Notes: generated by a model not told the origin, from the letters alone. A stretch of DNA of 64,000 bases from Patescibacteria group bacterium (GCA_041648895.1 JBAZOB010000001.1:15093-79092); one strand, 5' to 3'. Shown: positions 17,803-39,385, counted from the stretch's first letter. Numbers and translations are program-made.

Positions 17803-17855
17803 AAGTATCAAGTATTAAATACTTAATCCTTGATACTTGAAACTTGATCCTTGGA
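17803..17855. repeat. ACTTGATCC-family palindromic element, copy 3, downstream of the amidase gene.
   Basis: AGTATCAAGTATTAAATACTTAATCCTTGATACTTGAAACTTGATCCTTGG, a nested palindrome. Confidence 0.65.
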
Positions 17856-17883
17856 TAATAATTTGTAATTAAATTAATAACAA

Positions 17884-18321
17884 ATGAAAAAGAATATTAA
17901 AACAAAAAATAAAGTTATGCGAAAAGATGTCAAAGAAAGTGTGGTGGAGATTATGCGGCAGGAATTGAAAGATATTGATTGTTTGCTGGATGATTATTTT
18001 GAAGAGCAGCCCAATGAGATGGGGCAAAAGTGGTTCAGTTTCAATGAATCGAGGGTAATGGGAGCAGATGAAGTGTTGCGGATTAGTGTGTGGGGACTCA
18101 ATGATGATATTGTCAGGCATAATGATTTTTTTGATTCATATTATACCTGGGTGGGTGATATGGTGGCTGGTTTGGACAAGGCGGGAAAATTACAGTTCAA
18201 GCGCGAGAATACTCGTAAGGGTGAGGTAGCCGATGAGATTTTTGAGTTATTCAAAGGCTTTTGTGGGGGCAAGGTGGCGTGCAGTTTTCCGGAAGTAATA
18301 GAACTGAAATTGATAATTTAA
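17884..18321 (+). CDS. Hypothetical protein.
   Basis: 145-aa ORF with a plausible ATG; no motif recognised. Confidence 0.4.
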   Translation: MKKNIKTKNKVMRKDVKESVVEIMRQELKDIDCLLDDYFEEQPNEMGQKWFSFNESRVMGADEVLRISVWGLNDDIVRHNDFFDSYYTWVGDMVAGLDKAGKLQFKRENTRKGEVADEIFELFKGFCGGKVACSFPEVIELKLII

Positions 18322-20814: not shown

Positions 20815-23013
20815 ATGAAAAAGAATATTTTGTTTTTAGCGCTGATATTAACCATGCTAATGTCAAATTTGAATATGGTGCGGGCGGCTGATTATCAGGC
20901 GCAGTGGACAGGGCAAAGTGAGTATTTGACCATGACAGAAGGTGAGGAACAGACGGTGTGGGTGGAGTTTAAAAATACCGGTAGTGCCGATTGGCGGCAA
21001 ACTGGTCAGAACGCGGTGCATTTGGGAACGGCGAAAAATCTAGACCGGGCCAGTTCTTTTTATGATAATACTTCGTGGTTAACCAGTAATCGGATTGAGA
21101 TGAAGCAATCGGTGATTCATCCCGGTGAAACGGCTCGTTTTGAGTTTAAGATTAAGGCTCCATATAACTCGGGTGTTTATCAAGAATATTTTCGATTGGT
21201 AGCGGAGAATGTATCTTGGTTAAATGATGTCGGTTTATATTGGGAATGGCGGGTGATCGGGGCGGCCGGTTATGAGGACATGTGTATGAGTCGGGATAGC
21301 GTGGTTCAGTCAAGCGGGTGTGTGGTGCCCGAGCCGTGGATGTATGATTCGACTTGGAATGGTCAAAGTAAATATTTAACTTTGGCTCCGGGCGAGAGTC
21401 GAGAAGTGTGGGTGGAATTTGTTAATGATGGGGTAGCGACTTGGTATCAGAACGGTGATTTTGCGGTTCATTTAGGTACCGCCAATCCAATTGATAGAAA
21501 TAGTAATTTTGTCGATACTGATTGGCTTTCTACCAATCGGTTGGTTTTGGAACAAACCAGCGTTAAGCCGGGCGAGACGGGTCGTTTTTCTTTTACGGTT
21601 AAGGCTCCAACTAAAACGGGTGTTTATTATGAATATTTCCGGCCGGTGGTAGAAAATGTATCTTGGTTGCGCGATCAGGGGGTGTATTGGATGTTTGAAG
21701 TAGCGAACGCGGCCAATGATGATTCTTCGGATGATGATGCGGTTAGCGATAGTTGGGCGGCTAAGTTGATTGAACAAACTGGAAATCCGACTTTTGTGGT
21801 CGGTGAGGAAGCGGAAGAATATTTAACAGTGAAATACAAAAATATTGGCCAAACGACATGGGAAAAAAGTGGCAGTAACGTGGTCCAGTTGGCGACTAGC
21901 CAACCCAATGACCGCAATAGCGGTTTTATGACGAGTGATTGGCTCAATAGTCATCGGATTGCAATGCAGGAGAGTAGTGTGGCGCCGGGTGAGTACGCGA
22001 CTTTTAAATTTCGGGTATCTCCGGGGGAGACAGTAGCTCTGGGGACGCATAATGAACATTTTAATTTGGTGGCCAATGACAATTTCTGGTTTAGCGGGGT
22101 GGGGGTGGCCTGGAACATGGTTTTGGCGGGGGTGTCGGATGCGGTGGTAGTGACGGCCGATGGTAATTTTGATGTGAAAGATGGGGTAACGGGCAGTGTT
22201 TTGGCCACTTTGAGTTCAGGGCAAAAAGTTAATGTCAAATATGCTGGTGGCAATTATCAAATAACTTGGCCGGGTGGGTCTAAAAGTACTAGTAACTATG
22301 TGCGGCTAACGGGTAAAAATGGGGCGATTATGGAGGTAGTTTCATATAACGATATTAAATCATGGAATAGCAGTCTCAATGATAATAAATTTCGGGATAC
22401 GATTGAGGTGCGTTATTCGACCAATACCAATCAATTGTGGGTGATCAATGAATTACCCTTGGAAGATTATGTGGCGGGAGTGGCGGAGACGGGTAACTCT
22501 TCACCGACAGAATTTTTAAAAGCCATGACGATTGCTGAGCGAACTTACGTGATTTATCATCATAACCGTGGGGGACGTCATCCGGAAAATTATGTTGATC
22601 TGTACAATAGCGTCAACGGAAATGGTGATGACCAGGTTTATCGCGGCTATGGCTTTGAACAGCGCAATGATGAGGTGACCGAGGCAGCTGCCGATACAGT
22701 TGGTAAAGTGGTGACATATAACAATAATGTAGTCGTGACACCCTATTTTTCACATGCCGATGGCCGCACTCGCAGCTACAAAGAGGTGTGGGGTAGTGAC
22801 GTGGCCTGGTGTGTGTCAGTTGACGATCCTTATACAGCGGGGATGAGTTTGCTTGGTCATGGCGTAGGTATGAGTGCTTTAGGGGCGCAGATGTTTGCGG
22901 AAAAAGAGGGCAAAACTTATGACTGGATTTTAAAATATTATTATACTGGTATCGATATCTCCAATTATGATACAGCGAGTGAGAGAATCAGGGTCGGGAT
23001 TTATCATTTGTAA
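20815..23013 (+). CDS. Secreted SpoIID/LytB-domain protein (amidase enhancer / lytic transglycosylase-like) with three N-terminal FW-type repeats.
   Basis: Signal peptide MKKNILFLALILTMLMSNLNMVRA. Three roughly 115-aa repeats are homologous to those in the amidase. The C-terminal SpoIID domain reads ELPLEDYVAGV...ERTYVIYH...YGFEQRN...TPYFSHADGRTRSYKEVWG. Confidence 0.75.
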   Translation: MKKNILFLALILTMLMSNLNMVRAADYQAQWTGQSEYLTMTEGEEQTVWVEFKNTGSADWRQTGQNAVHLGTAKNLDRASSFYDNTSWLTSNRIEMKQSVIHPGETARFEFKIKAPYNSGVYQEYFRLVAENVSWLNDVGLYWEWRVIGAAGYEDMCMSRDSVVQSSGCVVPEPWMYDSTWNGQSKYLTLAPGESREVWVEFVNDGVATWYQNGDFAVHLGTANPIDRNSNFVDTDWLSTNRLVLEQTSVKPGETGRFSFTVKAPTKTGVYYEYFRPVVENVSWLRDQGVYWMFEVANAANDDSSDDDAVSDSWAAKLIEQTGNPTFVVGEEAEEYLTVKYKNIGQTTWEKSGSNVVQLATSQPNDRNSGFMTSDWLNSHRIAMQESSVAPGEYATFKFRVSPGETVALGTHNEHFNLVANDNFWFSGVGVAWNMVLAGVSDAVVVTADGNFDVKDGVTGSVLATLSSGQKVNVKYAGGNYQITWPGGSKSTSNYVRLTGKNGAIMEVVSYNDIKSWNSSLNDNKFRDTIEVRYSTNTNQLWVINELPLEDYVAGVAETGNSSPTEFLKAMTIAERTYVIYHHNRGGRHPENYVDLYNSVNGNGDDQVYRGYGFEQRNDEVTEAAADTVGKVVTYNNNVVVTPYFSHADGRTRSYKEVWGSDVAWCVSVDDPYTAGMSLLGHGVGMSALGAQMFAEKEGKTYDWILKYYYTGIDISNYDTASERIRVGIYHL

Positions 23014-23028
23014 TTCCTAATTTCTAAC

Positions 23029-23589
23029 ATGAGATTATTTTCTAAAATTGGCAAAAGGAAACGACGGACGGGGCGGATGAAGCAGAAGTCCAGTTGGTTG
23101 GATGGTATTCTTAAGAAAGCCAAACGGACAAATAAACGGGTAATCAAGCGAACGGTGCGAGGGGGGAATGGGCCGGCGGTTAAATCTTTTTTTGACTACC
23201 GTACTTTTTTGCGGTCGCGGCTTTTTAATGTTTCATTGATGATAGTGGCTGGCTATATGATATTTTTGACGGGACGGGAGGCTTTGGCCAATTACTATCA
23301 GTCAAAACAAATTGCCAAGATTGAAACGGAAAATAAAACTATTGAACAGAAAAATGAGGAATTAAAGTATCTTTTGGAGTATTATAAGACTGAGACCTTT
23401 GCGGAATTGGAGGCCAGACGGTATTTGAATTTAAAAAAACCGGGAGAAAGTGTGGCGATTGTTCCAGTTGATATGAATGAGATGCCGGTTGATGAGGGAC
23501 AACAACCGCCAGAATTAAAAGCGCGACCCAATTATAAGAAGTGGATCGATTTTATTTTTGCCGATATTAGTTCACTGCCGGATAATTAA
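23029..23589 (+). CDS. FtsB/DivIC-like septum formation initiator.
   Basis: Single TM helix (VSLMIVAGYMIFLTG), then coiled-coil IETENKTIEQKNEELKYLLEYYKTETFAELEARRYLNLKKPGE, typical of the Septum_form family. Confidence 0.6.
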   Translation: MRLFSKIGKRKRRTGRMKQKSSWLDGILKKAKRTNKRVIKRTVRGGNGPAVKSFFDYRTFLRSRLFNVSLMIVAGYMIFLTGREALANYYQSKQIAKIETENKTIEQKNEELKYLLEYYKTETFAELEARRYLNLKKPGESVAIVPVDMNEMPVDEGQQPPELKARPNYKKWIDFIFADISSLPDN

Positions 23590-23816
23590 TTACAAATGAC
23601 AAATGGCAGATTACAAATCACGAATGACGAATTGAATTAGTCATATATCATTTATTTTAATTAATGGCAGCAAAAGTTTGGTCGGTGGTGTTAATATGGA
23701 TCTATTTAATAATAGTAAGTTTTATGGCTAGCCATATAATTAAAATAAATGATATATGACTAATTCAATTCGTCATTCGTGATTTGTAATCTGCCATTTG
23801 TCATTTGTAATTAATT
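23585..23816. repeat. Large palindromic element A, about 230 bp. Arms of about 50 bp carry AATTACAAATG heptamer periodicity and flank a conserved ~100-nt core that contains TATAAT.
   Basis: AATTACAAATGACAAATGGCAGATTACAAATCACGAATGACGAATTGAATTAGTCATATATCATTTATTTTAATTAA ... core ... exact reverse complement. The core is about 85% identical to element B at 32671-32867. Confidence 0.8.
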
Positions 23817-23819
23817 TAA

Positions 23820-23906
23820 GGAAGGGTGGGAGAGCGGTTTAATCCGCACGCTTGGAAAGCGTGTATGGCCGCAAGGTCATCGAGGGTTCAAATCCCTCCC
23901 CTTCCG
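23820..23906 (+). tRNA. tRNA-Ser (anticodon GGA), type II with a long variable arm; no encoded CCA.
   Basis: Hand fold: acceptor GGAAGGG/CCCTTCC, anticodon stem CACGC/GCGTG with loop TTGGAAA, T-arm GAGGG-TTCAAAT-CCCTC, long variable arm. Confidence 0.8.
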
Positions 23907-23960
23907 TTTATATAAAAGGGATGCGAAATTTACACCCCTCTTTCTTAAATCAATATCAAA

Positions 23961-23981
23961 GGGTGAATCCCTCCCCTTCCG
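23961..23981 (+). repeat. Duplicate of the tRNA-Ser 3' end (GGGTGAATCCCTCCCCTTCCG), about 55 bp downstream of the tRNA.
   Basis: 19 of 21 nt match the T-arm/acceptor 3' half of the adjacent tRNA. Confidence 0.6.
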
Positions 23982-24083
23982 TCTTCGACCGCCATAGCTT
24001 GAGCGACGGCGGGTTTTGTTATCATAATAATTGTTTTTTCAGGGGTGAGATTTTTTAGCGTATTCGTAATTCCTATTTTTTTT

Positions 24084-25370
24084 ATGAAAAAGCGTCATTT
24101 TCAAAACAAATTAATTGCTGAGTTATTGAGTAATTGTCAAAAGGTTCCGGCTCGCTGTCCGCATTTTTTGGATTGTGGTGGGTGTAGCTATCAGGATTTT
24201 ACCTATGGTGATCAAATTAAGGTTAAGGAAAAAAAATTAAAGGAACTGTTTGGTGATTTGACGGCTGATACAAATGTATCATTTCAGGGCGGGCAGGAGT
24301 ATGGTTACCGGACGCGGATGGATTATATTGTTTCCAGTCAGGGATTGGGCCTGCGGCGCAAGCGGCGTTTTGATCAAGTGGTGGATTTACATGAATGTCA
24401 TCTGATTGATCCGGCGATATTTGGTTTTTTAAGATCAATCTATGAAGAGGGGATAAAGATCGGATTAATACCGTATGATTTGCAGTCAAAAACGGGATTT
24501 TGGCGATATCTTTCGGTGCGGGTCAATGAGAAAAATGATTTTATGGTTATAGTCAATACGACCAGTGATGAGAAATTGTATCCCTTGGTGGATGAATTAA
24601 TTGAAAAAATTACAAATAATATTGTCGGGGCGGGTTTTTCCCGCCTGCAATTGTGTGAGAAAGGGCGGGAGAACCCCGCCCGTACGAAAGTGGGTAATTT
24701 AGTTTCAATATATCATCTGATCAATGATGGATTAAATGATGACAATTTTGGTGAGGTGAGGCGGTGGTGGGGGGAAGAATTTTTAAAATTTAAAATTTTA
24801 AATCCTGGATCCGTGTCCAGGACAAGCTTTAAATTTAAAATAGGGCCGAATACTTTTTTTCAAAATAGTATAGAATTGTTGAATGGTCTAATAACTAAAT
24901 TGGTCGGATATATTGATGCCGATGATCAAGTGTTGGATTTGTATTGCGGGGTGGGAACGTTGTCATTGCCGGTGGCCAAAAAAGCGAAGCAAGTTTTGGG
25001 GGTGGAATTGATGGCGGAGAGTATTGAGTTGGCGAAGTTAAATGCGATAGATAATGGTATAACCAATGTTGATTTTGTGGTGGGAGAGGTGGAAAAAATA
25101 ATTACGAATGACGAATTACGAATTAGGAATTATGATGCATTAGTTTTGGATCCGCCACGTAAAGGACTGGAAAAGGCAGCCAGTGAGATAATGGAAATGG
25201 ATTTACAGAAAATTGTGTATATGTCATGCAATCCACTGACTTTAAAGAAAGATCTGGAGGTTTTAACAAAAAAATATCGATTGGTGGAAGCAAGCTGGTG
25301 GGATCTTTACCCGCAGACACCACATGTGGAAGGTTTGTGTTTATTGGTGGGCGATGGTGTCGAACTCTAG
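24084..25370 (+). CDS. RNA (uracil-5)-methyltransferase of the RlmC/RlmD/TrmA family with an N-terminal Fe-S cysteine cluster.
   Basis: CPHFLDCGGCSYQD cluster. SAM motifs LDLYCGVGTLSLP, VLDPPRKGL and YMSCNP. Start set at the internal ATG (MKKRHF). The CDS carries in-frame repeat insertions. Confidence 0.7.
   Translation: MKKRHFQNKLIAELLSNCQKVPARCPHFLDCGGCSYQDFTYGDQIKVKEKKLKELFGDLTADTNVSFQGGQEYGYRTRMDYIVSSQGLGLRRKRRFDQVVDLHECHLIDPAIFGFLRSIYEEGIKIGLIPYDLQSKTGFWRYLSVRVNEKNDFMVIVNTTSDEKLYPLVDELIEKITNNIVGAGFSRLQLCEKGRENPARTKVGNLVSIYHLINDGLNDDNFGEVRRWWGEEFLKFKILNPGSVSRTSFKFKIGPNTFFQNSIELLNGLITKLVGYIDADDQVLDLYCGVGTLSLPVAKKAKQVLGVELMAESIELAKLNAIDNGITNVDFVVGEVEKIITNDELRIRNYDALVLDPPRKGLEKAASEIMEMDLQKIVYMSCNPLTLKKDLEVLTKKYRLVEASWWDLYPQTPHVEGLCLLVGDGVEL
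24637..24683. repeat. GC-rich twin hairpin (GGGGCGGGTTTTTCCCGCC / GGGCGGGAGAACCCCGCCC) inserted in frame inside the rlmC-like CDS.
   Basis: About 70% GC in a roughly 38% GC gene. It encodes GAGFSRLQLCEKGRENPAR. The motif AATTACAAATAAT lies immediately upstream, the same architecture as the MITE-like family. Confidence 0.7.
25095..25135. repeat. Heptanucleotide periodic repeat (ATTACGA ATGACGA ATTACGA ATTAGGA ATTATGA) in frame inside the rlmC-like CDS.
   Basis: Five or six imperfect 7-bp units identical in type to the MITE and palindrome arm motifs, translated as ITNDELRIRNYDA. Confidence 0.7.
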
Positions 25371-25964
25371 TGGTATTATTTGGTAATTGGCTTGTGCAAG
25401 TAGTTGGTGACTGTCTTTTTTTTCTGATGTGGTTAAGTGGCGGTGTTCATAGTGAATGATATCAGGTTTAATCAGGGAAAAATCAATTGATTTTATAATT
25501 TGATAATCATAGCCCTCTGTGTCGATTTGGAGTAGATTTAGTTGGTCAATATGATGATCTTGGATAAGATTATTGAATGTTTGGCTGGGAACCGTGATCG
25601 ATTCAATTTCATTGGTATTCATCCGGCCAATATCGCCCCGATCGCGAGCCATAGTGGCAAAGCAGTTTTTCCAGTTTTCGGTGAGAGTATCCTGTTTGGG
25701 GCGATATAGTTTGACTGGTTGGTTATGATTGGAAATAGCCAGGTTCAATATTTTTATTTGTGGTGGTTGGTATTTTTTGGTTAATTGAGAGTAGTATTCC
25801 GGCTGGGGTTCGATGATTATCCCTGACCAGTGGTATGGTTGAATAAATTGATGGATAGGGTCATCAAAGACACCATCAAAACCACCAATTTGGATAAAAA
25901 ACATATTTTGGCGGCGGGATGGAGGAAGTTGATTAATAAATTGGGCAAAAGTTTTTACAGGCAT
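25341..25964 (-). CDS. FkbM-family methyltransferase.
   Basis: FIQIGGFDGVFDDP and LQIDTEGYDYQIIK match the Methyltransf_21 motifs. Convergent 30-nt overlap with the rlmC-like gene. Confidence 0.6.
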   Translation of the reverse strand: MPVKTFAQFINQLPPSRRQNMFFIQIGGFDGVFDDPIHQFIQPYHWSGIIIEPQPEYYSQLTKKYQPPQIKILNLAISNHNQPVKLYRPKQDTLTENWKNCFATMARDRGDIGRMNTNEIESITVPSQTFNNLIQDHHIDQLNLLQIDTEGYDYQIIKSIDFSLIKPDIIHYEHRHLTTSEKKDSHQLLAQANYQIIPLEFDTIAHQ

Positions 25965-25986
25965 ATGTAATTATTATAAACCAAAT

Positions 25987-26775
25987 ATGAGAGGAAACAG
26001 CGATCGATTTTATATCAAAAAAGGATTGGGGGAAGATTTATTATTGATTAATGATTTTGGCTTGATTAAGCAATGGCGGCGGGTATTGCGGTTGAATGAG
26101 GGTGACGTGTTGCGGTTGTTTGATGGCAGTGGTTGGGAATATATTTACGAAATAATATTAGCCCATGGTAATGGTAGGGGCACGGTGCCCGTGCCCAAAA
26201 CCGCGGGGATAAATTTGCAATTAGTCAATAAAAGATATGTCAAAGAGACAAAGAATAAAATAATTTTGGGATTTGGTTTATTGAAAAATCATGAACGAAC
26301 CGAGTGGATAATCGAGAAATGTACGGAGTTGGGGGTAGATGAATTTCAACCATTAATTACCGAGTATTCGCAAATTAACATCTTTAAAAATCGGACCAGG
26401 TTGGAGAAAAAAATTGTTGAAGCCAGTGAGCAGTCCGGCCGGGTACGTTTACCAAAAATGAATGACGAATTACAAATGACGAATTATAAACCAAATGATC
26501 AAAATATTAATGTGTGCATGGATGTAGGGGCGACCCTCGCGGTCGCCCAGGGCGGGCGCCAGGCCCGCCCCTACAATAATGGTGGCGCCGGGGTTATCCC
26601 GCCCGATTTTACCGGTAATATTTTGTTATTGGTTGGTCCGGAAGGAGGCTGGAGCGAGACAGAAAGAAAATGGTTAAGCGATCAGAAATTTAAATTCTGG
26701 TCAATTAATAATAATATTCTCCGGGCCGAGACGGCGGCGGTGGTGGGCGTGGGGATTTTAAAATGTCACCTTTGA
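25987..26775 (+). CDS. rsmE: 16S rRNA (uracil1498-N3)-methyltransferase RsmE with an in-frame palindromic insertion.
   Basis: C-terminal LLLVGPEGGWSETE...ILRAETAAV is the RsmE signature. The roughly 50-aa insert KMNDELQMTNYKPND...GATLAVAQGGRQARPYNNGGAG is not typical of the family. Confidence 0.7.
   Translation: MRGNSDRFYIKKGLGEDLLLINDFGLIKQWRRVLRLNEGDVLRLFDGSGWEYIYEIILAHGNGRGTVPVPKTAGINLQLVNKRYVKETKNKIILGFGLLKNHERTEWIIEKCTELGVDEFQPLITEYSQINIFKNRTRLEKKIVEASEQSGRVRLPKMNDELQMTNYKPNDQNINVCMDVGATLAVAQGGRQARPYNNGGAGVIPPDFTGNILLLVGPEGGWSETERKWLSDQKFKFWSINNNILRAETAAVVGVGILKCHL
26455..26490. repeat. Heptanucleotide periodic repeat (AATGACG AATTACA AATGACG AATTATA) in frame inside rsmE.
   Basis: Same 7-bp motif class as the arms of the palindromic elements. 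Confidence 0.7.
26524..26574. repeat. Perfect nested GC-rich palindrome of 51 nt (17 codons) in frame inside rsmE.
   Basis: GTAGGGGCG[ACCCTCGCGGTCGCCC AGGGCGGGCGCCAGGCCCGCCC]CTAC has outer 9-bp inverted repeats and two inner 8-bp hairpins. About 80% GC. Confidence 0.8.
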
Positions 26776-26809
26776 GCAAAGGTGACATTTTTCATTTATT
26801 TATAATTTA

Positions 26810-27451
26810 TTATGGGGCGTACCAGTCGATGGGATCGACGTTTTGGTAGTGGTCGCTGTCTTCGACAACGATATCGATATAATCGTGGGAGGGGCAACCA
26901 ATGTCCAAGCCACAAGTGACAAATTCGCTGTAGTAGGCTTTGTAGCTTGAGTCACCCAAGTAGGCATAGATGTTATAGGTGCCGGGTGGGACGACTAACT
27001 TGTAGCCGCGGCCGGCGGTGTATTTGGGGTCATCGATTAGATTAATAGTGCAAATATCATTGAAATTACCGGAGGTCTCTTGAGCGCAAACGGTCATGTC
27101 GGGAATAACTTCAGAGGGGTAAGAAAGGCTGCCTTCAATGGTGCCCGATGGGTTTGATTCTTCAATTGAATTTTTATCAACACTGGGATCGGTTTGATCG
27201 GAATCATCGTTTAATTTTTCCAGTTCTTTTTCGAGTTTCTCCAGTTCATCGGTAAAGGAATTGTCGAGTTGGTTGTTGGTTGTTTCCTGGACTATCTTTT
27301 GGCTGACAAAATAACCGCCGGCGATAGCCAGTATCGCGGATAGTATTGCCAAGATAACGGGTATAAGAATACAGGCGCCAATTATCCACCAGATGGTGTT
27401 ATTTTTGGAAGGAGAAGCTTGATTGGAATTAGGGGTTTGGTTGGCTGACAT
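26810..27451 (-). CDS. Membrane-anchored hypothetical protein: N-terminal TM helix, coiled-coil/acidic linker, C-terminal domain.
   Basis: WWIIGACILIPVILAILSAILAIAGGYF is the TM helix. ELEKLEKELEKL is the linker repeat. Confidence 0.5.
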   Translation of the reverse strand: MSANQTPNSNQASPSKNNTIWWIIGACILIPVILAILSAILAIAGGYFVSQKIVQETTNNQLDNSFTDELEKLEKELEKLNDDSDQTDPSVDKNSIEESNPSGTIEGSLSYPSEVIPDMTVCAQETSGNFNDICTINLIDDPKYTAGRGYKLVVPPGTYNIYAYLGDSSYKAYYSEFVTCGLDIGCPSHDYIDIVVEDSDHYQNVDPIDWYAP

Positions 27452-27466
27452 ATTTCTAATTTGTAA

Positions 27467-29119
27467 TTATTTAAGGCTGTGTTTAATAAAATTAACAAAA
27501 AGTGGATGGGGGGCAAGGGGGCGGGATTTGTATTCGGGGTGAAATTGAACGCCGACAAAGAAGGGATGAATTTTATTGGATAGTTCGATGGCTTCGACTA
27601 GCTCGCCGTCGGGGGAGGTGCCGGCAATAATGAGACCGGCTTTTTCGAGTTGTTTGCGGTATTTATTATTGAATTCGTAGCGGTGGCGGTGTCTTTCACT
27701 GACAATGTATTGGTTGGTGGCTGATTTATCAGTTGAATATTTAAGATATGATTCGGCTAGTTTAGTTTTGGGTTGAAGCACGCAGGGATAGGCGCCGAGG
27801 CGAATAGTGCCGCCGTACTGATGTTTGGCGAGATATTCTTTTTGACGGGGCATAATGTGAATGACGGGATATTTGGTTTGAGAATTAACTTCTTCGCTGT
27901 TGGCTTGGTCGAGCCGGCAAACATGACGGGCAAATTCAATCACGGCCATTTGCATACCGAAACAAAGTCCTAAAAATGGTATTTTTTTCTCCCGCAGGTA
28001 TCTGATAGCGGCAATTTTGCCTTCCACGCCGCGTGATCCCCAGCCTTGCGGGATGATGACGCCATCAAAATCGGCTAATTTTTTGACGTTGGCGGGATTT
28101 TTTTCAAAATCGGCCGAATTAATCCAGGTAAATTCCGGTTGTACCTGGTTGGCCCAGGCGCCGTGTTTGACAGCTTCGATAACTGATATATACGAATCAG
28201 ATAAGGTAAAGTTGCCAATGTCGAAATATTTCCCTACCATGGCGATTTTGACTGTTTTTTTGATGCCGTCAATTTTCTTGATCAGATTGTGCCAGGTGGA
28301 AAATTCATTTTTTTTCGGTTGAAGATTTAGTTTTTTGATAATTTTGTCATCCAGTTGTTGATCTTTGAATATACCGGGAATGCGGTAGATAGTATCGACG
28401 TTGGGGTTGGAGATGATGTTTTCGACGTCGATACTGCAGTTGCGAGCCAAGGTGGCGCGGCGCGGTTCGTCCATATAGGTGTCGGCGCGGCCGATGATGA
28501 AATCAGGCATGACGCCGGAGCTCATCAGGGTGCGGACGGAGGTTTGAACGGGTTTAGATTTCATTTCGCCCAGGAAAGAAGGGATAGGAAGATAGCCAAC
28601 ATGGACATGAATGACGTCGTTTTTGTGGCGGTATTTCATGATACGGTTGGCTTCAATAAATAATATATTTTGATATTCACCGACGGTGCCACCAATTTCA
28701 ATGAGTACTACCTCAGCTTTACTAACCCGGCCGGCTTCTTCAAAGCGGCGGATCATTTCCTCGGGGACATGGGGCACAATTTCCACGTCTTCGCCTTCAT
28801 ATTCAAAAGCTCTTTCTTTGCGAATAATTTCTTGATAGACCATGCCATTGGTGAGGTAGTTGGCACGTTTTAGATCGCTGTTTATAAATCTCTCATAGTT
28901 GCCAATGTCCTGGTCGCATTCTAGGCCGTCGTCGGTAACAAAAACTTCGCCGTGTTCCTGTGGGCGGATGGTGCCGGCGTCGACGTTCATGTAGGCGTCG
29001 CATTTGACGCAAGTAACGCGGATGCCTTTGGATTTTAGTAGTAGAGCAATGGAAGCGGTGGTAATTCCTTTTCCTAAACCCGAAATTACCCCACCGGAGA
29101 CAAATATGTATTTGGTCAT
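27467..29119 (-). CDS. pyrG: CTP synthase.
   Basis: MTKYIFVSGGVISGLGKGITTASIALLL at the N-terminus. The C-terminal glutamine amidotransferase domain has GLCFGMQ and the HRHRYE motif region. The start is moved to the ATG matching the canonical MTKYIF N-terminus; the tracked ORF uses an upstream TTG. Confidence 0.85.
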   Translation of the reverse strand: MTKYIFVSGGVISGLGKGITTASIALLLKSKGIRVTCVKCDAYMNVDAGTIRPQEHGEVFVTDDGLECDQDIGNYERFINSDLKRANYLTNGMVYQEIIRKERAFEYEGEDVEIVPHVPEEMIRRFEEAGRVSKAEVVLIEIGGTVGEYQNILFIEANRIMKYRHKNDVIHVHVGYLPIPSFLGEMKSKPVQTSVRTLMSSGVMPDFIIGRADTYMDEPRRATLARNCSIDVENIISNPNVDTIYRIPGIFKDQQLDDKIIKKLNLQPKKNEFSTWHNLIKKIDGIKKTVKIAMVGKYFDIGNFTLSDSYISVIEAVKHGAWANQVQPEFTWINSADFEKNPANVKKLADFDGVIIPQGWGSRGVEGKIAAIRYLREKKIPFLGLCFGMQMAVIEFARHVCRLDQANSEEVNSQTKYPVIHIMPRQKEYLAKHQYGGTIRLGAYPCVLQPKTKLAESYLKYSTDKSATNQYIVSERHRHRYEFNNKYRKQLEKAGLIIAGTSPDGELVEAIELSNKIHPFFVGVQFHPEYKSRPLAPHPLFVNFIKHSLK

Positions 29120-29293
29120 GAAGTGTTTTAATTTGTACAAGATAATATTGTAACGTTAATGAACAAAAGTCGGAAGTGAAATCAATATAATATTAATTTA
29201 ATCTCGAGGTTATTTTTTATTAATCAGGTATTTGATAATATTGATATGGACTTAATTAATGAGTAGTGTGAATTAATAATATGATCTACTTGG

Positions 29294-29410
29294 ATGAGAT
29301 CCCCGCCTTGAGCGGGGATGACATCATCAAGTTTATTATAAACGCCTTATTGATGAGATCCCCGATAACCGGAGCGCTCCGCTATGCTCCGCTTCCGGTC
29401 GGGGATGACA
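29294..29410. repeat. GC-rich palindromic MITE-like element, copy 4, closely related to copy 1.
   Basis: ATGAGATCCCCGCCTTGAGCGGGGATGACA ... GATCCCCGATAACCGGAGCGCTCCGCTATGCTCCGCTTCCGGTCGGGGATGACA, in the divergent pyrG/dnaG region. Confidence 0.8.
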
Positions 29411-29468
29411 TGAGGGATAGTTAATTAGCACAATTCATTAATTAATGAATAATTAATAATTATTTTTT

Positions 29469-31196
29469 GTGAACGAAATTGAAGATATAAAAAGTCGGAT
29501 CGATATTGTCGAATTGGCCAAAGAGTACATGACACTCCGGCCGGCGGGGCGCAATATGAAGGCGATTTGTCCGTTGCATAGCGAGAAGACGCCTTCGCTG
29601 ATGATTGCCAAAGATAAACAGATCTGGCGGTGTTTTGGTTGTGGCGAAGGCGGCGATATTTTCACCATGGTGCAAAAAATGGAAGGGGTGGATTTTTATG
29701 AAGCGCTAAAAATACTGGCTGAAAAGGTGGGAGTGGAGTTAAAAAAAGATCCGGGATTTATTAAATACAAGCAGCAAGAGCAGGTCATGGCCGATATCAA
29801 CGCGGTGGCGATGGAATTTTATCATCAGGCTTTTTTGCGGAGCAAATCGGGTCAAGTGGCTCGAGATTATATTGCTGGGAGAGGTTTAGACCAGCCGACG
29901 GTGGCTAAATTTAAAATTGGTTTCGCGCCTAATCTTTGGGAGGCTTTGACATCATTTTTGGCAAAGAGAAAGTATTCATTGGACCAGATTGTTAAAGTTG
30001 GGCTGGGTTCGTATACCAAAAAAAGAACCGTGGTGGACCGGTTTCGGGGGCGGGTGATGTTTCCGATCTGGAATGAGCGAGGGCGGGTGGTGGGGTTTAC
30101 GGGTCGGGTGTTGGACGAAAAAGATAATCCTAAATATTTGAATACGGCGGCGACCAGTTTGTTTGACAAGAGTCGATTGTGGTATGCCATGAATCTGGCC
30201 AAGAATAAAATCCGGGAAAAAAGGGAAGCGATAATTTGTGAGGGGCAAATGGATGTGATCACTTGTCATCAATTTGGCTTTGACTGGGCGGTATGCAGTT
30301 CGGGTACGGCCGTCTCCAATTATCAAATGCGGCAAATCAAGCGCTTGGCGGATACAATTTTATTGGCTTTTGATAACGATGAAGCCGGGCGTAAATCAGG
30401 TTATCGTTTGACGGAGATGGCTTTGGAAGAGGGATTGATGGTCAAAGTGATTGATATGGGCAAATATAAAGATCCGGACGAGTTTATTCGGGCTGATTTA
30501 TCTGGTTGGCAGCAGTCAATGACCGGGGCGTTGGGTTTTGTGGAGTATTTTTTGCAGGCTTTTGGCCATAATTTACAGAACGCTAAAGATAAAAGCCAGC
30601 TAGCCGATAATATTATTCCTTTGATTTATCGAGTCAAAGATGAAATTGGACGGGGACATTATATTTCGGAGTTGGCGGAACGTTTGAGTGTGGATGAACA
30701 GTTTGTGTTGCAGAAATATAATTCTTATCAACCGCGAGCGGCGGCCGGCCAGCAAAAAGAAGCTGGTCCGGTTAAAAAGATAACTTATGAGGAACGGTTG
30801 GTGGCGTTGCTGATATTGTTGGCTGATATGTTTGGCGAGGTGAAGTTTGATTTGCAGGACGAAATATTGTCTGATAAAATGATAAAGATAATGCAAGTAT
30901 TGAAAAAGAATGCTAATCAGAAATTTACCTGGGATTGGTTTCGAGATTTGTCGGGAGAAGATTTGAGTCGATGGCAGCAGCTGGTGATGACGGTGGAAAA
31001 GGATTATGACCAGGTTGACAAGGAGATGCTTTTGACAGAGATAGGGATGTTGGCGGATCGGATAAAAGAGGCCAATAAAGATGAACAGAAAGGTAATCTG
31101 GAGCAGGCAATTGTTGAGGCCGAATCAAGTGGTGACCGGGAGAAGGTAAAAGACTATATTAGGAGGTTGCAGGACTTGATTATTAACGATAAGTAG
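29469..31196 (+). CDS. dnaG: DNA primase.
   Basis: CHC2 zinc finger CPLHSEKTPSLMI...WRCFGCGEGGDIF. TOPRIM region EGQMDVITCHQFG...LAFDNDEAG. GTG start. Confidence 0.85.
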   Translation: MNEIEDIKSRIDIVELAKEYMTLRPAGRNMKAICPLHSEKTPSLMIAKDKQIWRCFGCGEGGDIFTMVQKMEGVDFYEALKILAEKVGVELKKDPGFIKYKQQEQVMADINAVAMEFYHQAFLRSKSGQVARDYIAGRGLDQPTVAKFKIGFAPNLWEALTSFLAKRKYSLDQIVKVGLGSYTKKRTVVDRFRGRVMFPIWNERGRVVGFTGRVLDEKDNPKYLNTAATSLFDKSRLWYAMNLAKNKIREKREAIICEGQMDVITCHQFGFDWAVCSSGTAVSNYQMRQIKRLADTILLAFDNDEAGRKSGYRLTEMALEEGLMVKVIDMGKYKDPDEFIRADLSGWQQSMTGALGFVEYFLQAFGHNLQNAKDKSQLADNIIPLIYRVKDEIGRGHYISELAERLSVDEQFVLQKYNSYQPRAAAGQQKEAGPVKKITYEERLVALLILLADMFGEVKFDLQDEILSDKMIKIMQVLKKNANQKFTWDWFRDLSGEDLSRWQQLVMTVEKDYDQVDKEMLLTEIGMLADRIKEANKDEQKGNLEQAIVEAESSGDREKVKDYIRRLQDLIINDK

Positions 31197-31257
31197 GAAT
31201 ATTTTTTAAAAACCTTTGGTATGACAAGGGTTTGTTGTTGTTTGTATAATAATTTTT

Positions 31258-32673
31258 ATGAAAAAAGCGTCTAAAAAAAGTTTGACCAAAAAGTTGAAAA
31301 AGAAAAAAAACCAGCCGAAATTGAAAAAAAAGCCGGTAGGCAAGAAAGCTAGATTGAAAGTTAAAACCAAGAAGAAAATAGTTAAAAAAATAGTTAAGAA
31401 GAAAATTGTTAAAAAGCCGCCAAAGCCGGTGATAGTTAAGAAAAAGCCTTTGGTGAAGCCAGCCAGTAAAGCAATTACCAAAGTGGAAGAGACGCCGGTC
31501 AAAAAAAGATCAAGAGCCAAAAAGAAAGTGGGGTTGTCTAAAGACGAGATTTTGGCCAAGATAACCACGGAAATTTATGGTGACAATGTCGATAAAGTTA
31601 GTGAACTGGTGAGCAAAGGGCGGGAGCAGGGATTTATCACGCAGCGGGAAATCATGCAAACCCTGCCGACGATTGAAGATGATATTGAGCTGCTGGATGA
31701 ATTTTATTCTTTGCTCTCGGAAGCGGGTATTGAAATGATGGAGAGTGAGGAAAAGTTGAAAGATGTGGTGGCGCCCTCGGAAATGGAATTATTACAGTCG
31801 GCGGCGGAATATGAGGCGGAAGTGAAGGAAGAAGCTTTGCAGGATGTTTCTCGTGATTCGGTCCGATTATATTTGCGCGAGATTGGTCGGGTAGCTCTGC
31901 TGAAACCTCACGAAGAGGTGGAATTGGCTAAACGGATGGAAAAGGGTGACCAATTGGCTAAACAGAAATTGATTGAAGCCAATTTACGTCTGGTGGTCAG
32001 TATTGCCAAACGTTATGTGGGGCGGGGGTTGAGTTTACTCGATCTGATCCAAGAAGGTAATACTGGTTTATTACGAGCCGTAGAGAAGTTTGATTACCGT
32101 AAAGGGTACAAATTTTCGACCTATGGTACGTGGTGGATCAGACAAGCGATTACGCGGGCGATTGCTGACCAAGCGCGGACCATTCGGATTCCGGTACATA
32201 TGGTGGAGACGATCAATAAACTAACTCGGGTGCAACGGCATTTGGTACAGGCCTTGGGACGCGAGCCGTTGCCGGAAGAAATCGCGGCCGAGATGGGGAT
32301 TGAGCTGGACAAGGTCCGCTATGTCCTGAAAATTTCGCAAGAAACTGTTTCATTGGAAGCGCCGGTGGGCGAAGAAGAAGACAGTTATTTGGGTGATTTT
32401 TTGGAGGACAAGGTAACTCTATCACCCAAGGATTCGGCGACGGTTCAGTTGTTGAAAGATCATCTGGCTAAGGTTTTGGAATTATTGTCCCCGCGGGAAA
32501 AACGTATTTTGGAGATGCGGTTTGGTTTGGTGGACGGGACGACTCGCACTTTGGAAGAGGTGGGGAAGGAGTTTGGGGTGACGCGTGAACGTATCCGTCA
32601 AATTGAAGCCAAGGCCTTGATGCGACTGCGCCGCAATCGGGAAAGTCGGCAGTTGCTTGATTATTTGAGATAA
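31258..32673 (+). CDS. rpoD: RNA polymerase sigma-70 factor with a roughly 100-aa lysine-rich N-terminal extension.
   Basis: Region 2 [29 protein letters not shown], region 3 and region 4 ([23 protein letters not shown]). The N-terminus is [43 protein letters not shown]. Confidence 0.85.
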
Positions 32674-32867
32674 TTACGAATTAGGAATTAGGAAGGACGA
32701 ATTGGATTGGTCATACATCATTTTTTTAATTAATGGCAGCGAAGGTTTGGTCGGTGTTGTGTTATGGTGGAACTGTATAATAATAGTTAGTTTTATGGCT
32801 AGCCATATAATAAAAAAAATGATGTATGACCAATCCAATTCGTCCTTCCTAATTCGTAATTCGTAAT
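32671..32867. repeat. Large palindromic element B, about 197 bp, homologous to element A in its core. Its arms differ from A but remain self-complementary.
   Basis: AATTACGAATTAGGAATTAGGAAGGACGAATTGGATTGGTCATACATCATTTTTTTAATTAA ... core TTAATTAATGGCAGCGAAGGTTTGGTCGGTG...AGTTTTATGGCTAGCCATATAAT ... reverse-complement arm. Confidence 0.8.
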
Positions 32868-32870
32868 TTT

Positions 32871-34209: not shown

Positions 34210-34283
34210 TCCGGAGTAGCTCAGCTGGTTAGAGCGACTGACTGTTAATCAGTAGGTCGTGGGTTCGAGTCCCACCTCCGGAG
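34210..34283 (+). tRNA. tRNA-Asn (anticodon GTT); no encoded CCA.
   Basis: Hand fold: acceptor TCCGGAG/CTCCGGA, D-arm GCTC-AGCTGGTTA-GAGC, anticodon stem ACTGA/TCAGT with loop CTGTTAA, T-arm GTGGG-TTCGAGT-CCCAC. Confidence 0.8.
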
Positions 34284-35768
34284 TTTGTAAGAACACTCTT
34301 TAGCCTGCAGAAGAAGGTCGAAGGGTGTTTTTAGTTTGTAGATTATGTTTTCGTCTTTCAGTTGTAAGTTCGAAAATACGAATTTGAGTAATTGCCGTTT
34401 TTTGTCTATTTCCGAACTTTTGGCAAAAATTTGAGGAGCTTTGGAACAGACATTTAGTAGAAAGGTAACTGATTTTACGAATTTTTCATCAGCCTCAGTA
34501 TGATCTTTCATAGACTGAGTAATTTCATATTGTCTATTTTTTAAATCTTTGGCTTTTTTGTCATATTCATCTTGAGTAATACTCCTATTAATACAGAGGT
34601 CCAAGAGTGTATCAAGAGAGGTTTGAATTTTGGTGTATTCGGTTTGAAGTTCGGTAATACTATTTTTATGGTATTCAATTTTGGCTTGGTGAGTTTGGTT
34701 AACTTGATTAATTAGATCGGCGAGGATATCGTCCGGAATAACTAATAAATCGAGTATTTTATTGATTTGTTTTAATAATTGCTTTTCTTCCATTCTTTTG
34801 GCTCCGTGTTTGCCTTTTGATTCGGTACATTTGAGATAGATATATTTATTTTTCTTTTTGTCTGATGAGATAGCACATCCACAATCAGCACATTCAATCA
34901 TTCCTCGACCTAAAACTGAAGCATGGATAGTGGACCATTTGAAGGGTTTTTTGTGATAACCTTGGATAACATCCTGACAGCGATCAAATAATTCTTTAGT
35001 AATTAGATTACCGTGATTGTGCGGTGCTATATTTTCTTTAACTTTCATCATTCCGTAATAAAACGGATTGGTAATGACATGGTTTAACCGACTGTGGGAT
35101 AAATAATTATAGGGAGGTTTGTTGTTGGTAAGACCTTTCTTTTTCATTAAATTTGCTAATCCGCGGATGGAATAACTGCCGGTAGCATATAGGTTGAATA
35201 TTTCTTGGACCAAATACGCTCTTTGTTTGTCTATAATAATAATTTTTCTTTTTGTGATTGGGTCTTCTTCATTTAGATAACCAATTGGTGCTTTAGTTAG
35301 CCATTCGCCACGTTTGATTTTTCCTTCGAATGCGCGTTTGACGTTGTCGCTTATTGCATCGGAATAGTATTTGGCTAGTCCAAGATTCATGGCGAAATGA
35401 AATTTTTCAACGGCGGATATATTGGAATTAATAACAAGGTTATCTGAAACAAAGTGCATTTCAATTTTATCCAACATTGTCATCTCGTACAGGTTGGATA
35501 TTCTTTTATCAAAAACATTTCGGGAAAATCTATCAACTTTATCAAAACAAATTACTAATTTTTCTTTTGATTTTTTGATGTAATCAATCATTTTGTCAAA
35601 ATCATCTCTTTTGTTTCGATATGCTCCTTCGTCAAAACTGTATTGTTTAACGATGGGGAGGTCTTTTTTTTGACAATATTTAATCATCCGATCAGTTTGA
35701 GCTGGTAGGGAATTACCAGCGTCTTTTTGCTCTTCGGTTGATACTCTGGCTAATATTATGGCTTTCAT
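34245..35768 (-). CDS. Large serine recombinase (resolvase catalytic domain, recombinase domain, zinc ribbon); integrase of the downstream island. The 3' end overlaps tRNA-Asn.
   Basis: N-terminal MKAIILARVSTEEQ...SLPAQ (catalytic Ser). FDKVDRFSRNV. Zn ribbon CADCGCAIS...C. The last roughly 13 codons run through the tRNA-Asn 3' half on the opposite strand. Confidence 0.75.
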   Translation of the reverse strand: MKAIILARVSTEEQKDAGNSLPAQTDRMIKYCQKKDLPIVKQYSFDEGAYRNKRDDFDKMIDYIKKSKEKLVICFDKVDRFSRNVFDKRISNLYEMTMLDKIEMHFVSDNLVINSNISAVEKFHFAMNLGLAKYYSDAISDNVKRAFEGKIKRGEWLTKAPIGYLNEEDPITKRKIIIIDKQRAYLVQEIFNLYATGSYSIRGLANLMKKKGLTNNKPPYNYLSHSRLNHVITNPFYYGMMKVKENIAPHNHGNLITKELFDRCQDVIQGYHKKPFKWSTIHASVLGRGMIECADCGCAISSDKKKNKYIYLKCTESKGKHGAKRMEEKQLLKQINKILDLLVIPDDILADLINQVNQTHQAKIEYHKNSITELQTEYTKIQTSLDTLLDLCINRSITQDEYDKKAKDLKNRQYEITQSMKDHTEADEKFVKSVTFLLNVCSKAPQIFAKSSEIDKKRQLLKFVFSNLQLKDENIIYKLKTPFDLLLQAKECSYKLRRWDSNPRPTD

Positions 35769-39100: not shown

Positions 39101-39385
39101 TTGCAGGCCAAGTATGTGCTGGATATATTCAAAAAACTTTGCAATGGTAATAATCTGGTTCATCGAGATTTGGTAGAATTGTTTGATAAAGAGACTCAAG
39201 AAGCCAAAGACATGTCAAAATATTCAGATTTATTGAGGCAGTCAATTGAGCATATTATCGGAGAGAAGCAAGAAAAAGGGATTGAAGATATTTTCAGCAG
39301 TCTGGGAAAGACAAATATTGCCAAAGATGCCTCGTTGTCGTGGATTGATGATTTTGAGTTGATTTCATTTTTGATTATCAAATAG
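36131..39385 (+). CDS. SNF2-family helicase with a roughly 230-aa N-terminal non-catalytic domain.
   Basis: Motif I ILADSVGLGKT. Motif II LVLIDESHNFRN. Motif III LMLSATPVNN. Helicase-C motif VI QRFGRIDRIGS. Confidence 0.8.
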   Translation: MNKVLDNKKSKVSDVLLAEIKDKAKLSVISAYFTIYAFEKLKKSLSKIDSLRFLFVEPTFTKEQEETREFYIDKLDREKQLSGTQYEIKLRNELTQSKVAKECADWIRSKVDFRSLKKSDLSRARAIHVQNPDSEFIVQGTLDFTSSGLGFSNSNKLEMNVYSDDQDATREMLTWFDEIWNDEMLVEDVKEEVLKSIQTIYKENTPEFIYYVTLYNLFKEYLDELTEENIIKVKTGVKDSIIWKKLFKFQKDGVMGVIDKLEKHNGCILADSVGLGKTFEGLAVIKYYELRNYRVLVLCPKKLRDNWMMYRSNDVRNIFAEDRFGYDILNHTDLSREKGMSGDINLETINWGNYDLVLIDESHNFRNNDSLKNKKTRYRKLMDDIIRTGVKTKVLMLSATPVNNRMNDLKNQIAFITEGNDEALLDEGVKNIGNTFRLAQYQFNKWLDRPLNDRGLDSLLASLNVDYFKLLDALTIARSRKHIEKYYDLSEVGRFPDRLKPLNIKSKVDLKGDFPSFEDINDSIKRLSMAIYSPLQYVRSDRVKKYQKKYDREVKGGSYFRQTDREKNIVNLMRVNILKRLESSIFSYNLTLTRLAGKIEEILQMIDDFHDSGRYSLDLDDAPESIDGDDEQLESMTVGNKISVELADMDLIRWKDDLQSDLTRLKDLISFAEPINTDSDAKLADLKKIIADKISNPINDNNKKVVVFSAFSDTAEYLYKYISEWLENKFNLHSALVTGGTTNKTTSDEIKTDLNSILTNFSPVSKEKAKVFPGVKDEIDVLIATDCVSEGQNLQDCDYLINYDIHWNPVRIIQRFGRIDRIGSVNEKIQLVNFWPDMELDEYINLEQRVRGRMILLNASATGEEDIINETDKDVMNDIEYRKNQLTRLQEEVLDLEDISGNISITDMTMSDFKMDLMEYLKDNRELLERSALGMYAIVSKDESLEDLSSGVIFTLRQVDFSEAKSGETNAIHPYYMVYIGDNGEVKLTYLQAKYVLDIFKKLCNGNNLVHRDLVELFDKETQEAKDMSKYSDLLRQSIEHIIGEKQEKGIEDIFSSLGKTNIAKDASLSWIDDFELISFLIIK

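Follow-up and report, generated by a model that had tools for sequence, protein, structure and literature searches.

The window analysed here, a stretch of 64,000 nucleotides of DNA from a Patescibacteria group bacterium (GCA_041648895.1 JBAZOB010000001.1:15093-79092), contains two long palindromes, elements A and B, located directly downstream of a DivIC/FtsB-domain gene and of rpoD, respectively. The repeat family to which they belong, named F1 in this report, is probably a foldback-type non-autonomous mobile repeat of one uncultured Patescibacteria population, the arms of which would be regenerated by hairpin-templated copying. The arms of its copies change, often faster than the centre that they enclose, but they do so on both sides together.

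An initial annotation of the window had described, at these two sites, palindromic elements with a shared core of about 85% identity, and such elements were found there: A and B align in the same orientation with 84% identity over 183 nt, and both conserved core blocks occur twice each in the window, in A and B, versus none expected from shuffled sequences. The arms, described as perfect and 45-55 bp long, are longer than that and perfect in A only, with the inverted-repeat search giving 80 nt at 100% complementarity around a loop of 73 nt for A, and 61 nt at 97% complementarity around a loop of 75 nt for B. The AATKRCR-type heptamers attributed to them are present as AATKACR arrays in the outer arms, and the arm sequence, which was correctly said to differ between the elements (gaattagtcatatatc versus ggattggtcatacatc), is mirrored within each. 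The inner ca. 33 nt of the left arm of A correspond to the family-conserved inner arm AATTGAATTAGTCATATATCATTTATTTTAATTA, and the stem of A can be extended, with bulges, by the first 8 and the last 9-10 nt of the centre; the centre of B exceeds the family norm by 2 nt, owing to an insertion common to B and copy L028. The TATAAT and the palindrome reported in the core were confirmed in both elements, the former lying beside the 14-nt palindrome TATGGCTAGCCATA. Folded as DNA, A reaches -93.5 kcal/mol (z = -22.8 versus shuffles), and B folded as RNA reaches -104.7 kcal/mol (z = -18.2). The statement that both elements start exactly at the stop codon of the upstream gene is accurate for B, which begins with the second base of the rpoD stop codon (32671-32673), but only approximate for A, whose start (23584) precedes the stop codon (23587-23589) of the DivIC/FtsB-domain gene by 3 nt, so that its left arm overlaps the last sense codon as well as the stop codon. 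On the other side, A ends 3 nt short of a tRNA-Ser gene (23820-23906), and B 2 nt short of the start codon of an MFS transporter gene (32871).

A search with the core, proposed as genome-wide with the initial annotation and made here in metagenome contigs, led to at least 26 copies, all from the window's sample. The 18-mer TTATGGCTAGCCATATAA, taken from the centre and used as a seed in JGI metagenome contigs, gave 31 stretches, of which 22 are full elements, all of one assembly, Ga0265297; the conservation of the 18-mer is partly a matter of ascertainment, as copies differing in it are missed by such a scan (copy L044_4606 was found only by BLAST). BLAST together with an nhmmer profile gave exactly 25 copies in 236 kb of contigs, the 26th being located on contig L050, and the JGI contigs carrying F1 copies total ca. 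376 kb. The window contig, 135 kb long, belongs to the ENA assembly ERZ27247363, and the same sequence is found in the Logan assemblies of run SRR8542065. Homologues of its rpoD assign the organism to the Patescibacteria/CPR, with 'Patescibacteria group bacterium' as the source of the nearest named proteins. The census concerns a single sample, because the gyrB gene next to the copy on contig L019 is encoded identically on ERZ27247363 and SRR8542065, and L050 (ENA) and L019 (JGI) are 99.99% identical; the idea that the JGI copies represent a second genome sharing F1 was discarded accordingly, the sample being that of the window and the genome probably the same. Judged by these sequence matches, all 26 copies come from one sample, and their shared repeat families, GC content, and GC skew suggest that they probably represent one Patescibacteria genome, to which the JGI contigs are tied by sample and shared repeats rather than by a closed assembly. 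Outside this sample, a 19-mer core scan of the GTDB representative genomes gave five matches, all of them chance ones of 19-20 nt, that of a viral collection gave one chance match, and a BLAST search of phage and plasmid collections gave no F1 match.

Each F1 copy is built of three layers, an asymmetric centre of ca. 73 nt (consensus ATGGCAGCAAATGTATTGCCGGTGGTGTTAATGTGGATCTGTCTAATAATGGTAAGTTTTATGGCTAGCCATA) and inner arms of ca. 30 nt (AATTGnATTAGTCATATATCATTTATTTTAATTA and its mirror), both present in every copy, and outer arms, which are copy-specific. The outer arms are AATKACR heptamer arrays differing in order and number in each copy; those of L027, L028, and L026_7557 end in unique non-heptamer sequence, still mirrored, and the outer layer of L044_4606 comprises a motif typical of other repeat families. 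In every copy, the outer part is mirrored exactly on the opposite side. Complete copies are 169-255 nt long, with arms extending 41-84 nt beyond an 87-nt core block, and past the arm ends the complementarity stops abruptly. The arms are AT-rich, and the sole GC-containing palindrome of F1 is the single 14-mer TATGGCTAGCCATA of the centre, which together with TATAAT forms the best-conserved block of the family, though this block also supplied the search pattern. The centre is the most conserved part, and conservation falls off towards the outside, the termini being the least conserved part because the outer arms differ in every copy; this pattern is the opposite of that of a transposon whose ends are recognition sites. 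A check for target-site duplications, also proposed at the outset, revealed no consistent direct repeat at the 25 copies, the flanks of the conserved unit being mirrored and not direct; ca. 10 copies end AATT...AATT. No inner-arm palindrome devoid of the centre was found in the 236 kb, and no donor copies of the unique outer-arm sequences were found elsewhere. A comparison of shared arm length with core distance was uninformative, as all heptamer arrays resemble each other.

The symmetry of the arms is nearly complete. In 25 copies, 1615 of 1622 arm pairs are Watson-Crick pairs, 3 are G.T, and 4 are other mismatches, and the within-copy arm identity amounts to 99.6%. In an alignment of 24 copies, 27 of 47 arm pairs are changed on both sides (98 cells), as opposed to one one-sided (G.U) change and one unpaired cell, which extends to the whole family the earlier observation that the arms diverge between copies yet stay paired. 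The paired fraction is 99.9% versus 89.9% in shuffles, none of 500 shuffles reaches the observed value, and sliding the pairing partner by 1-3 columns destroys the covariation signal. In the loop, private (singleton) substitutions amount to 1.36% per site, whereas the asymmetry of the arms implies only 0.22% per site (Fisher p = 7e-6). In two copies whose 87-nt centres are identical, 3 of 42 inner-arm positions differ, each in mirrored fashion, and the outer arms are wholly different.

RNA helices under selection normally show many G.U states. The near absence of G.U on either strand of F1 points to a symmetry maintained in DNA and not in RNA, as far as can be read from the sequences. It bears directly on one of the two readings offered initially, that of a structured RNA, i.e., a transcribed element (acting as small RNA, processing site, or cis-regulatory hairpin) whose helix is kept by selection for RNA pairing. 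Such an RNA would account for the massive helix covariation and the extreme predicted stability, and as most copies lie between co-directional genes, read-through would include the element. Nevertheless, it is very unlikely, with a single wobble against 98 double changes and 3 G.T among 1622 pairs; moreover, roughly every second double change is a transversion pair (e.g., U-A to A-U or G-C to C-G), for which there is no wobble route, and perfect helices of 60-95 bp with free sequence and length are atypical of functional bacterial RNAs. The structure of the loop is unsupported, since the pairs predicted inside it show one-sided changes only, with no compensation, and four copies are located between convergent and two between divergent genes. 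Rfam 15 gave no match at gathering thresholds on A, B, and nine other loci, the sub-threshold scores for F1 being those of plant microRNA hairpins (23-35 bits versus cut-offs of 100-122 bits). A small-protein gene was considered on the basis of a 31-codon hydrophobic open reading frame (ORF) starting at the first base of the loop, and was rejected: the frame is intact in only 13 of 24 copies, its substitutions by codon position (30/52/57) show no third-position excess, and no Shine-Dalgarno sequence precedes it.

The perfection of the arms is seen at the level of short-read metagenome assemblies of one sample, and palindromes, or their perfection, could in principle arise from de Bruijn assembly or amplification chimeras. 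The Logan contigs L002 (ending at window position 32714) and L051 do stop inside F1 arms, from which it follows that F1 palindromes break k-mer assemblies. However, an artefact is extremely unlikely. Three assemblers (ENA megahit, JGI, and Logan) agree base for base in the overlaps, and the window sequence is reproduced without differences by Logan, an independent assembler, as are other palindromes and B's first 43 nt. The arms are shorter than the final k of 141 (indicated by the k141_ contig names) and are therefore not collapsed repeats; the elements lie inside contigs and are flanked on either side by unique sequence, and each of the 26 copies has different arms. Finally, rare asymmetries have stayed unrepaired: some are single mismatches, and both L025 and the window element 15011-15229 have an indel of one heptamer. 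This argues against an artefact forcing perfection.

That the F1 palindromes are additions to the spacers in which they reside is evident from the operon GT4-DUF4012-gyrB-gyrA-infB, which has the same gene order in three relatives used as outgroups (L052, L054, and L055, with gyrB 75-78% identical). At the two junctions with F1, the spacer minus the element is about as long as the spacer of the relatives, and at the third junction, occupied by an element of a sister family, F2, the remainder is larger (Table 1). None of the three operon junctions has an inverted repeat of at least 18 nt in the relatives, and no AATKASR heptamer arrays are found in 110 kb of relatives, nor in L054 and L055, versus 1.7 per 10 kb in the window. 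As the relatives' operon spacers are short and free of palindromes, the whole F1 palindrome, heptamers included, is inserted DNA. The F2 copy at gyrA/infB is flanked by the direct repeat TAGATT, and this repeat, together with those at two other sister copies, indicates that elements of such architecture do insert. For B there is no empty site to compare: the rpoD relatives L009-L016 (rpoD 73-88% identical) are devoid of F1, and downstream of rpoD their gene order is not conserved.

A different course of events was also considered, in which the core landed in the tip of an old hairpin or heptamer palindrome. The idea was prompted by the mirrored unique outer stems of L027 and L028, a coreless palindrome at L044 2119-2192, and the nested modules. 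It is weakened by the hairpin- and heptamer-free spacers of the relatives, which at both F1 junctions are shorter by the full palindrome length, and by the lack of a centre-less inner-arm palindrome in the 236 kb; the landing of the core in a pre-existing hairpin within the window lineage is possible.

The perfect yet copy-specific arms would be explained if one arm were copied from the other at the DNA level. Two processes already established could act in this way. In the first, a single-stranded, partly asymmetric hairpin intermediate would be completed during transposition by fold-back synthesis on its own other arm, which would account for the arms differing between sister copies, the mirrored unique sequence, and the nested outer motif of L044_4606. 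In the second, intra-strand template switching at replication would convert quasi-palindromes into perfect ones. By either route, heptamer slippage, point changes, and flanking sequence acquired by one arm would then be mirrored automatically. A more far-reaching proposal, to be treated as tentative and as less probable than the mobile repeat itself, is that F1 and its sister families represent an undescribed mode of bacterial DNA propagation. What is inherited would be the centre with a single arm, in the form of a single-stranded hairpin, and fold-back synthesis would remake the other arm at each copying; heptamer slippage and captured flanks would be mirrored, giving nested, changing, always perfect palindromes with neither conserved ends nor target-site duplications.

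The other reading offered initially was that of two subfamilies of a MITE (miniature inverted-repeat transposable element) with long terminal inverted repeats (TIRs). In this case F1 would be an internally deleted insertion sequence (IS) mobilised by an end-binding DDE transposase, with the heptamers serving as multiple binding sites. F1 is indeed a small, AT-rich, and non-coding repeat with inverted arms, present in multiple intergenic copies; its sister families share the terminal motif ACGAGTGGYGTGAATTA, some with direct repeats (TAGATT/AATCTA, ca. 11 nt, or 14 nt), and the palindromic AATT ends of ca. 10 copies could hide a target-site duplication. However, instead of two subfamilies, every copy has arms of its own, and the poorly conserved termini, the range of arm lengths, the mirrored unique ends of L027, L028, and L026_7557, and the lack of a consistent target-site duplication are all at odds with an ordinary MITE, as is an arm identity far above both the need of transposase binding and the conservation of the loop. 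Neither inner-arm sequence away from the centre nor an IS with F1 arms was found in the 236 kb, the genome being incomplete. An ordinary MITE is therefore unlikely. The mirrored divergence on which both initial readings were based is real, but neither of them fits as stated; as to the outcomes that would have spoken against them, neither identical arms with clear target-site duplications nor a lack of further copies was found.

Several points weigh against a mobile repeat with copied arms as well. No transposase or other mobilising gene was identified among the contig proteins, which were not screened systematically, and no Y1 transposase was found among 28 proteins scanned, likewise with no systematic protein-family screen of the contigs. 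As F1 has neither target-site duplications nor conserved termini, classical transposition is not demonstrated. Its mobility is deduced from the sequences, and its insertion is established at the lineage level only, the outgroups being distant. The arm symmetry may instead be kept by selection for pairing, in RNA or DNA. Moreover, the orientation bias described below is confounded with gene direction, so that it may reflect replication or transcription.

F1 copies are all located between genes, and the flanking genes are unrelated housekeeping ones. In 16 of 16 co-directional cases the upstream ORF ends -20 to +8 nt from the element start, and in most copies the downstream ORF starts 0-31 nt past the element. 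The centre is oriented in agreement with positive local GC skew in 24 of 25 copies, and of the neighbouring genes, the left one is co-oriented with it in 17 of 20 cases and the right one in 17 of 22. This lock on orientation is real. One copy faces away from both neighbours, and on L026, where the genes oppose a weak skew, one copy follows the skew and one follows the genes. In the window as a whole, the GC skew is strongly positive (0.1-0.46) over 64 kb, including positions 1-15000 with minus-strand genes, and is therefore mostly replicational.

The palindrome sits as an insertion between genes, most often immediately behind a stop codon, which would have consequences at the RNA level. By analogy with known elements, a read-through transcript would likely carry a 60-90-bp perfect hairpin serving as a 3' end, a barrier, or an RNase III substrate, and the TATAAT of the centre, beside a 14-bp palindrome and facing the downstream gene in most copies, is possibly a promoter. 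The TATAAT is perfect in all F1 copies, partly by ascertainment, as it lies in the search pattern. Consensus scans of A and B gave it no -35 partner matching 4/6 positions or more, at the 16-18 nt spacing of a sigma-70 promoter, and the promoter and terminator scans were not above chance. An intrinsic terminator was rejected, as the scan showed neither a terminator-like site nor a T tract in A and B and the stems are AT-rich and 60-90 bp long.

These properties bring in one more explanation, that of a host-selected regulatory cassette, in which the hairpin would end or insulate the upstream transcript, the centre would be a promoter with an operator-like palindrome, and the copies would wire a regulon. 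At A (tRNA-Ser) and B (MFS) the element fills the spacer, leaving no other room for a promoter, the centre usually faces the downstream gene, and its best-conserved block is TATGGCTAGCCATA with TATAAT, subject to the reservation on the search pattern given above. Among MITEs, the Correia elements are a known case of promoters and RNase III sites being carried in this way (PMC10969869). On the other hand, a cassette agrees poorly with the lack of a -35 hexamer and of a terminator-type T tract, with the four copies between convergent genes and the one facing away from both neighbours, and with the unrelated housekeeping functions of the flanking genes; at gyrB the copy lies upstream of a 96-nt native leader also present in relatives, and the copy-specific perfect arms are left unexplained. 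As an explanation of F1 it is quite unlikely. It is compatible with a mobile repeat, and both can hold.

Table 1. Features of the window, F1 and sister elements on other contigs, and operon junctions of contig L050 compared with relatives (positions are those of the window unless a contig is named)
Feature	Coordinates	Strand	Remarks
Element A, complete foldback element	23584-23816	+ (strand of asymmetric centre)	233 nt; inverted-repeat search; profile match E = 1e-35
A left arm	23584-23663	.	outer heptamers AATTACA AATGACA AATGGCA GATTACA AATCACG AATGACG
A asymmetric centre (loop)	23664-23736	+	73 nt, ATGGCAGC...TATGGCTAGCCATA
A palindrome with TATAAT	23723-23740	+	14-nt perfect palindrome TATGGCTAGCCATA overlapping TATAAT (23735-23740), centre/right-arm junction
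A right arm	23737-23816	.	exact reverse complement of left arm
Element B, complete foldback element	32672-32868	+	197 nt; centre oriented as in A; profile match E = 4e-32
B left arm	32672-32732	.	AATTACG AATTAGG AATTAGG AAGGACG, then inner arm AATTGGATTGGTCATACATCATTTTTTTAATTA
B asymmetric centre	32733-32807	+	75 nt
B palindrome with TATAAT	32794-32811	+	TATGGCTAGCCATA; TATAAT at 32806-32811
B right arm	32808-32868	.	59/61 positions complementary to left arm
Second palindromic family in window	9112-9279, 15011-15229, 29252-29445
Sister element, terminus ACGAGTGGYGTGAATTA	L019 8117-8260 (= L050 8557-8700)		6-nt direct repeat AATCTA/TAGATT
Sister elements, terminus ACGAGTGGYGTGAATTA	L020 4050-4193; L026 12077-12285		direct repeats of 14 nt (TACATTCCTAATTT) and ca. 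11 nt
GT4/DUF4012 junction			relatives 33-40 nt; L050 240 nt; F1 211 nt; remainder 29 nt
DUF4012/gyrB junction			relatives 124-160 nt; L050 310 nt; F1 195 nt; remainder 115 nt
gyrA/infB junction			relatives 3-15 nt; L050 187 nt; F2 sister element 144 nt; remainder 43 nt

F1 is not the only family of this kind. At least four more families of this design were revealed by a palindrome scan, their asymmetric centres measuring 28-63 nt, their inner arms being conserved, and their outer arms consisting of variable heptamers; the arms reach 95 nt with 100% complementarity. The terminal motif ACGAGTGGYGTGAATTA is common to three of these families, and a pair of this kind encloses one F1 copy; the sister families with the terminus ACGAGTGG have direct flanking repeats in three copies. 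The three elements with the terminus ACGAGTGGYGTGAATTA listed in Table 1 have perfect arms of 43-83 nt. The variable length of the direct repeats of sister elements is unusual for a DDE transposase.

The second palindromic family of the window, one of those just described, consists of two inverted copies of a GC-rich hairpin, TGTCATCCCCGCCTTGAGCGGGGATCTCAT (30/30 complementary), around a 28-nt spacer, which occurs in both orientations relative to GC skew, with outer arms carrying ACGAGTGGYGTGAATTA and heptamers. It is 81-88% identical to copies on L017, L041, and L025 of the same sample and looks REPIN-like (9152-9239 and 15085-15172). Two coreless palindromes, 2441-2505 and 3226-3291, comprise AAGGATC/AAGTATC heptamers mirrored by ACTTGAA/ACTTGAT, with 1 nt between the arms; they are intergenic, lie within a type IV secretion-like cluster (580-9025; VirB4/TraG P-loop, PrgI, TrbL/VirB6), and are reproduced exactly by the independent Logan assembly. 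Single non-palindromic heptamer arrays are found in short spacers at 557-577, 4014-4034, 10570-10590, 10993-11017, 17819-17891, and 23002-23022. More than 110 kb of sequence from related genomes contain no such arrays, which are therefore lineage-specific.

Heptamer arrays also lie inside two window ORFs, 25987-26775 and 24045-25370. In the former, coding for an RsmE-like protein, the segment 26461-26575 comprises AATGACG AATTACA AATGACG followed by inverted GTAG-headed GC-rich palindromes (GTAGGGGCGACCCTCGCGGTCGCCC / GGGCGGGCGCCAGGCCCGCCCCTAC), in frame; the protein is ca. 27 residues longer than in two relatives, indicating an in-frame repeat insertion in a housekeeping gene. In the latter, coding for an RlmD-like protein, five AATTACG-type heptamers (25100-25132) encode ITNDELRIRNY in a variable linker of this methyltransferase; on that strand, an array of AATTACG alone is free of stop codons in all frames. 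The relative L016 (GCA_049322675.1) has another repeat in frame in the same two methyltransferases (2162-3520 and 4151-4978), with the peptide motif SRDRTAAGNFQ occurring twice in RlmD and once in RsmE, and long perfect AT-rich intergenic palindromes devoid of heptamers at 2017-2149 and 5789-5919.

Downstream of B, the region 34210-56000, adjoining a tRNA-Asn gene (34210-34283), is a probable integrated island, with a large serine recombinase (34245-35768, minus strand), a lower GC content (31-38%), and long ORFs (36131-45219). It contains an Rfam match to DUF3800-IX RNA (53703-53772, minus strand; 62 bits versus a gathering threshold of 36.8). In L009 and L016, rpoD is followed directly by tRNA-Asn, so the MFS gene, B, and the island are additions in the window lineage. 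In the relative L014, SNF2-helicase, DUF4391, N6/N4-methylase, and restriction-enzyme genes are similarly placed downstream of rpoD.

CPR (Candidate Phyla Radiation)/Patescibacteria genomes are small, and mobile DNA is thought to be scarce in them; elements like F1 are not known to have been described in this phylum, and literature searches gave no description of them. In the genome of the window, approximately 1 in 10-15 intergenic spacers holds a long and perfect palindrome belonging to one of several families of modular build. F1 is a clean natural example of palindrome symmetry that appears to be maintained in DNA rather than in RNA, and it could give access to a symmetrising mechanism, be it a hairpin intermediate of transposition or template switching, in unculturable organisms. 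In practical terms, elements of this type can pass as structured RNAs in covariation tests, and they break short-read assemblies. With hairpins of 60-90 bp and a TATAAT placed between essential genes (rpoD, gyrB, tRNA-Ser), they have probably shaped transcript ends in this lineage.

Among known systems, REPINs are REP doublets forming hairpins and mobilised by RAYT transposases (Bertels and Rainey 2011, PMC3116915). Compensatory changes are frequent in them, and an asymmetric single-stranded intermediate has been proposed, from which the symmetric element is rebuilt (PMC3116915). F1 resembles REPINs in being short non-autonomous intergenic DNA that forms one long hairpin and has many copies per genome, and in that the whole unit folds into the hairpin with compensatory changes across its sides. 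The two differ in that REPINs have conserved ends, the GC-rich REP, and a variable middle, whereas F1 has a conserved centre and variable ends; moreover, F1 has no GC-rich imperfect REP palindrome, its arms being AT-rich heptamers of up to 90 nt.

Correia elements of Neisseria generate a TA target duplication. Like F1, they are non-coding and intergenic, ca. 100-250 bp in size, with inverted arms, but they have fixed 26-bp TIRs, in contrast to the copy-specific arms of variable length in F1, which has neither conserved termini nor target-site duplications. Correia elements (CREE) can carry sigma-70-type promoters, and RNase III cleaves their arms where these are paired in mRNA (PMC10969869); a similar behaviour at the RNA level would be expected of F1. 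Of the features by which MITEs in general are recognised, F1 has small size, non-coding character, multiple copies, and intergenic location, but not conserved TIRs or a target-site duplication of fixed length.

The foldback (FB) transposons of Drosophila and other eukaryotes have long inverted arms made of short tandem repeats in copy-variable number, closely matched to each other, and a variable or asymmetric middle. The likeness of F1 to them lies in the repeat-built matching arms around such a middle. FB transposons are, however, eukaryotic and of kilobase scale, have conserved extreme termini and target-site duplications, and show no sequence relation to F1; no established bacterial counterpart of them is known. 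In cyanobacteria, Elhai and colleagues (2008, cited in PMC5861425) reportedly described heptanucleotide tandem repeats (STRR) and small dispersed repeats that are intergenic, nested, and found in palindromic contexts. They belong to another phylum and consist of other heptamers, and no perfect mirrored arms of 60-90 nt are known among them.

A mutational mechanism, as distinct from an element family, offers the remaining parallel. In quasipalindrome template switching, as described for E. coli and yeast (PMC7202029, PMC3820800), one arm of an imperfect inverted repeat is copied onto the other, and palindromes are perfected or lengthened; this is the type of DNA-level symmetrisation proposed for F1, and it may operate in the organism of the window. 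F1 is of a kind already known, that of hairpin-forming non-autonomous DNA repeats, and in its working it is nearest to REPINs and foldback-type MITEs, yet it lacks the defining features of each, and its inverted pattern of conservation together with its heptamer-built arms is unusual.

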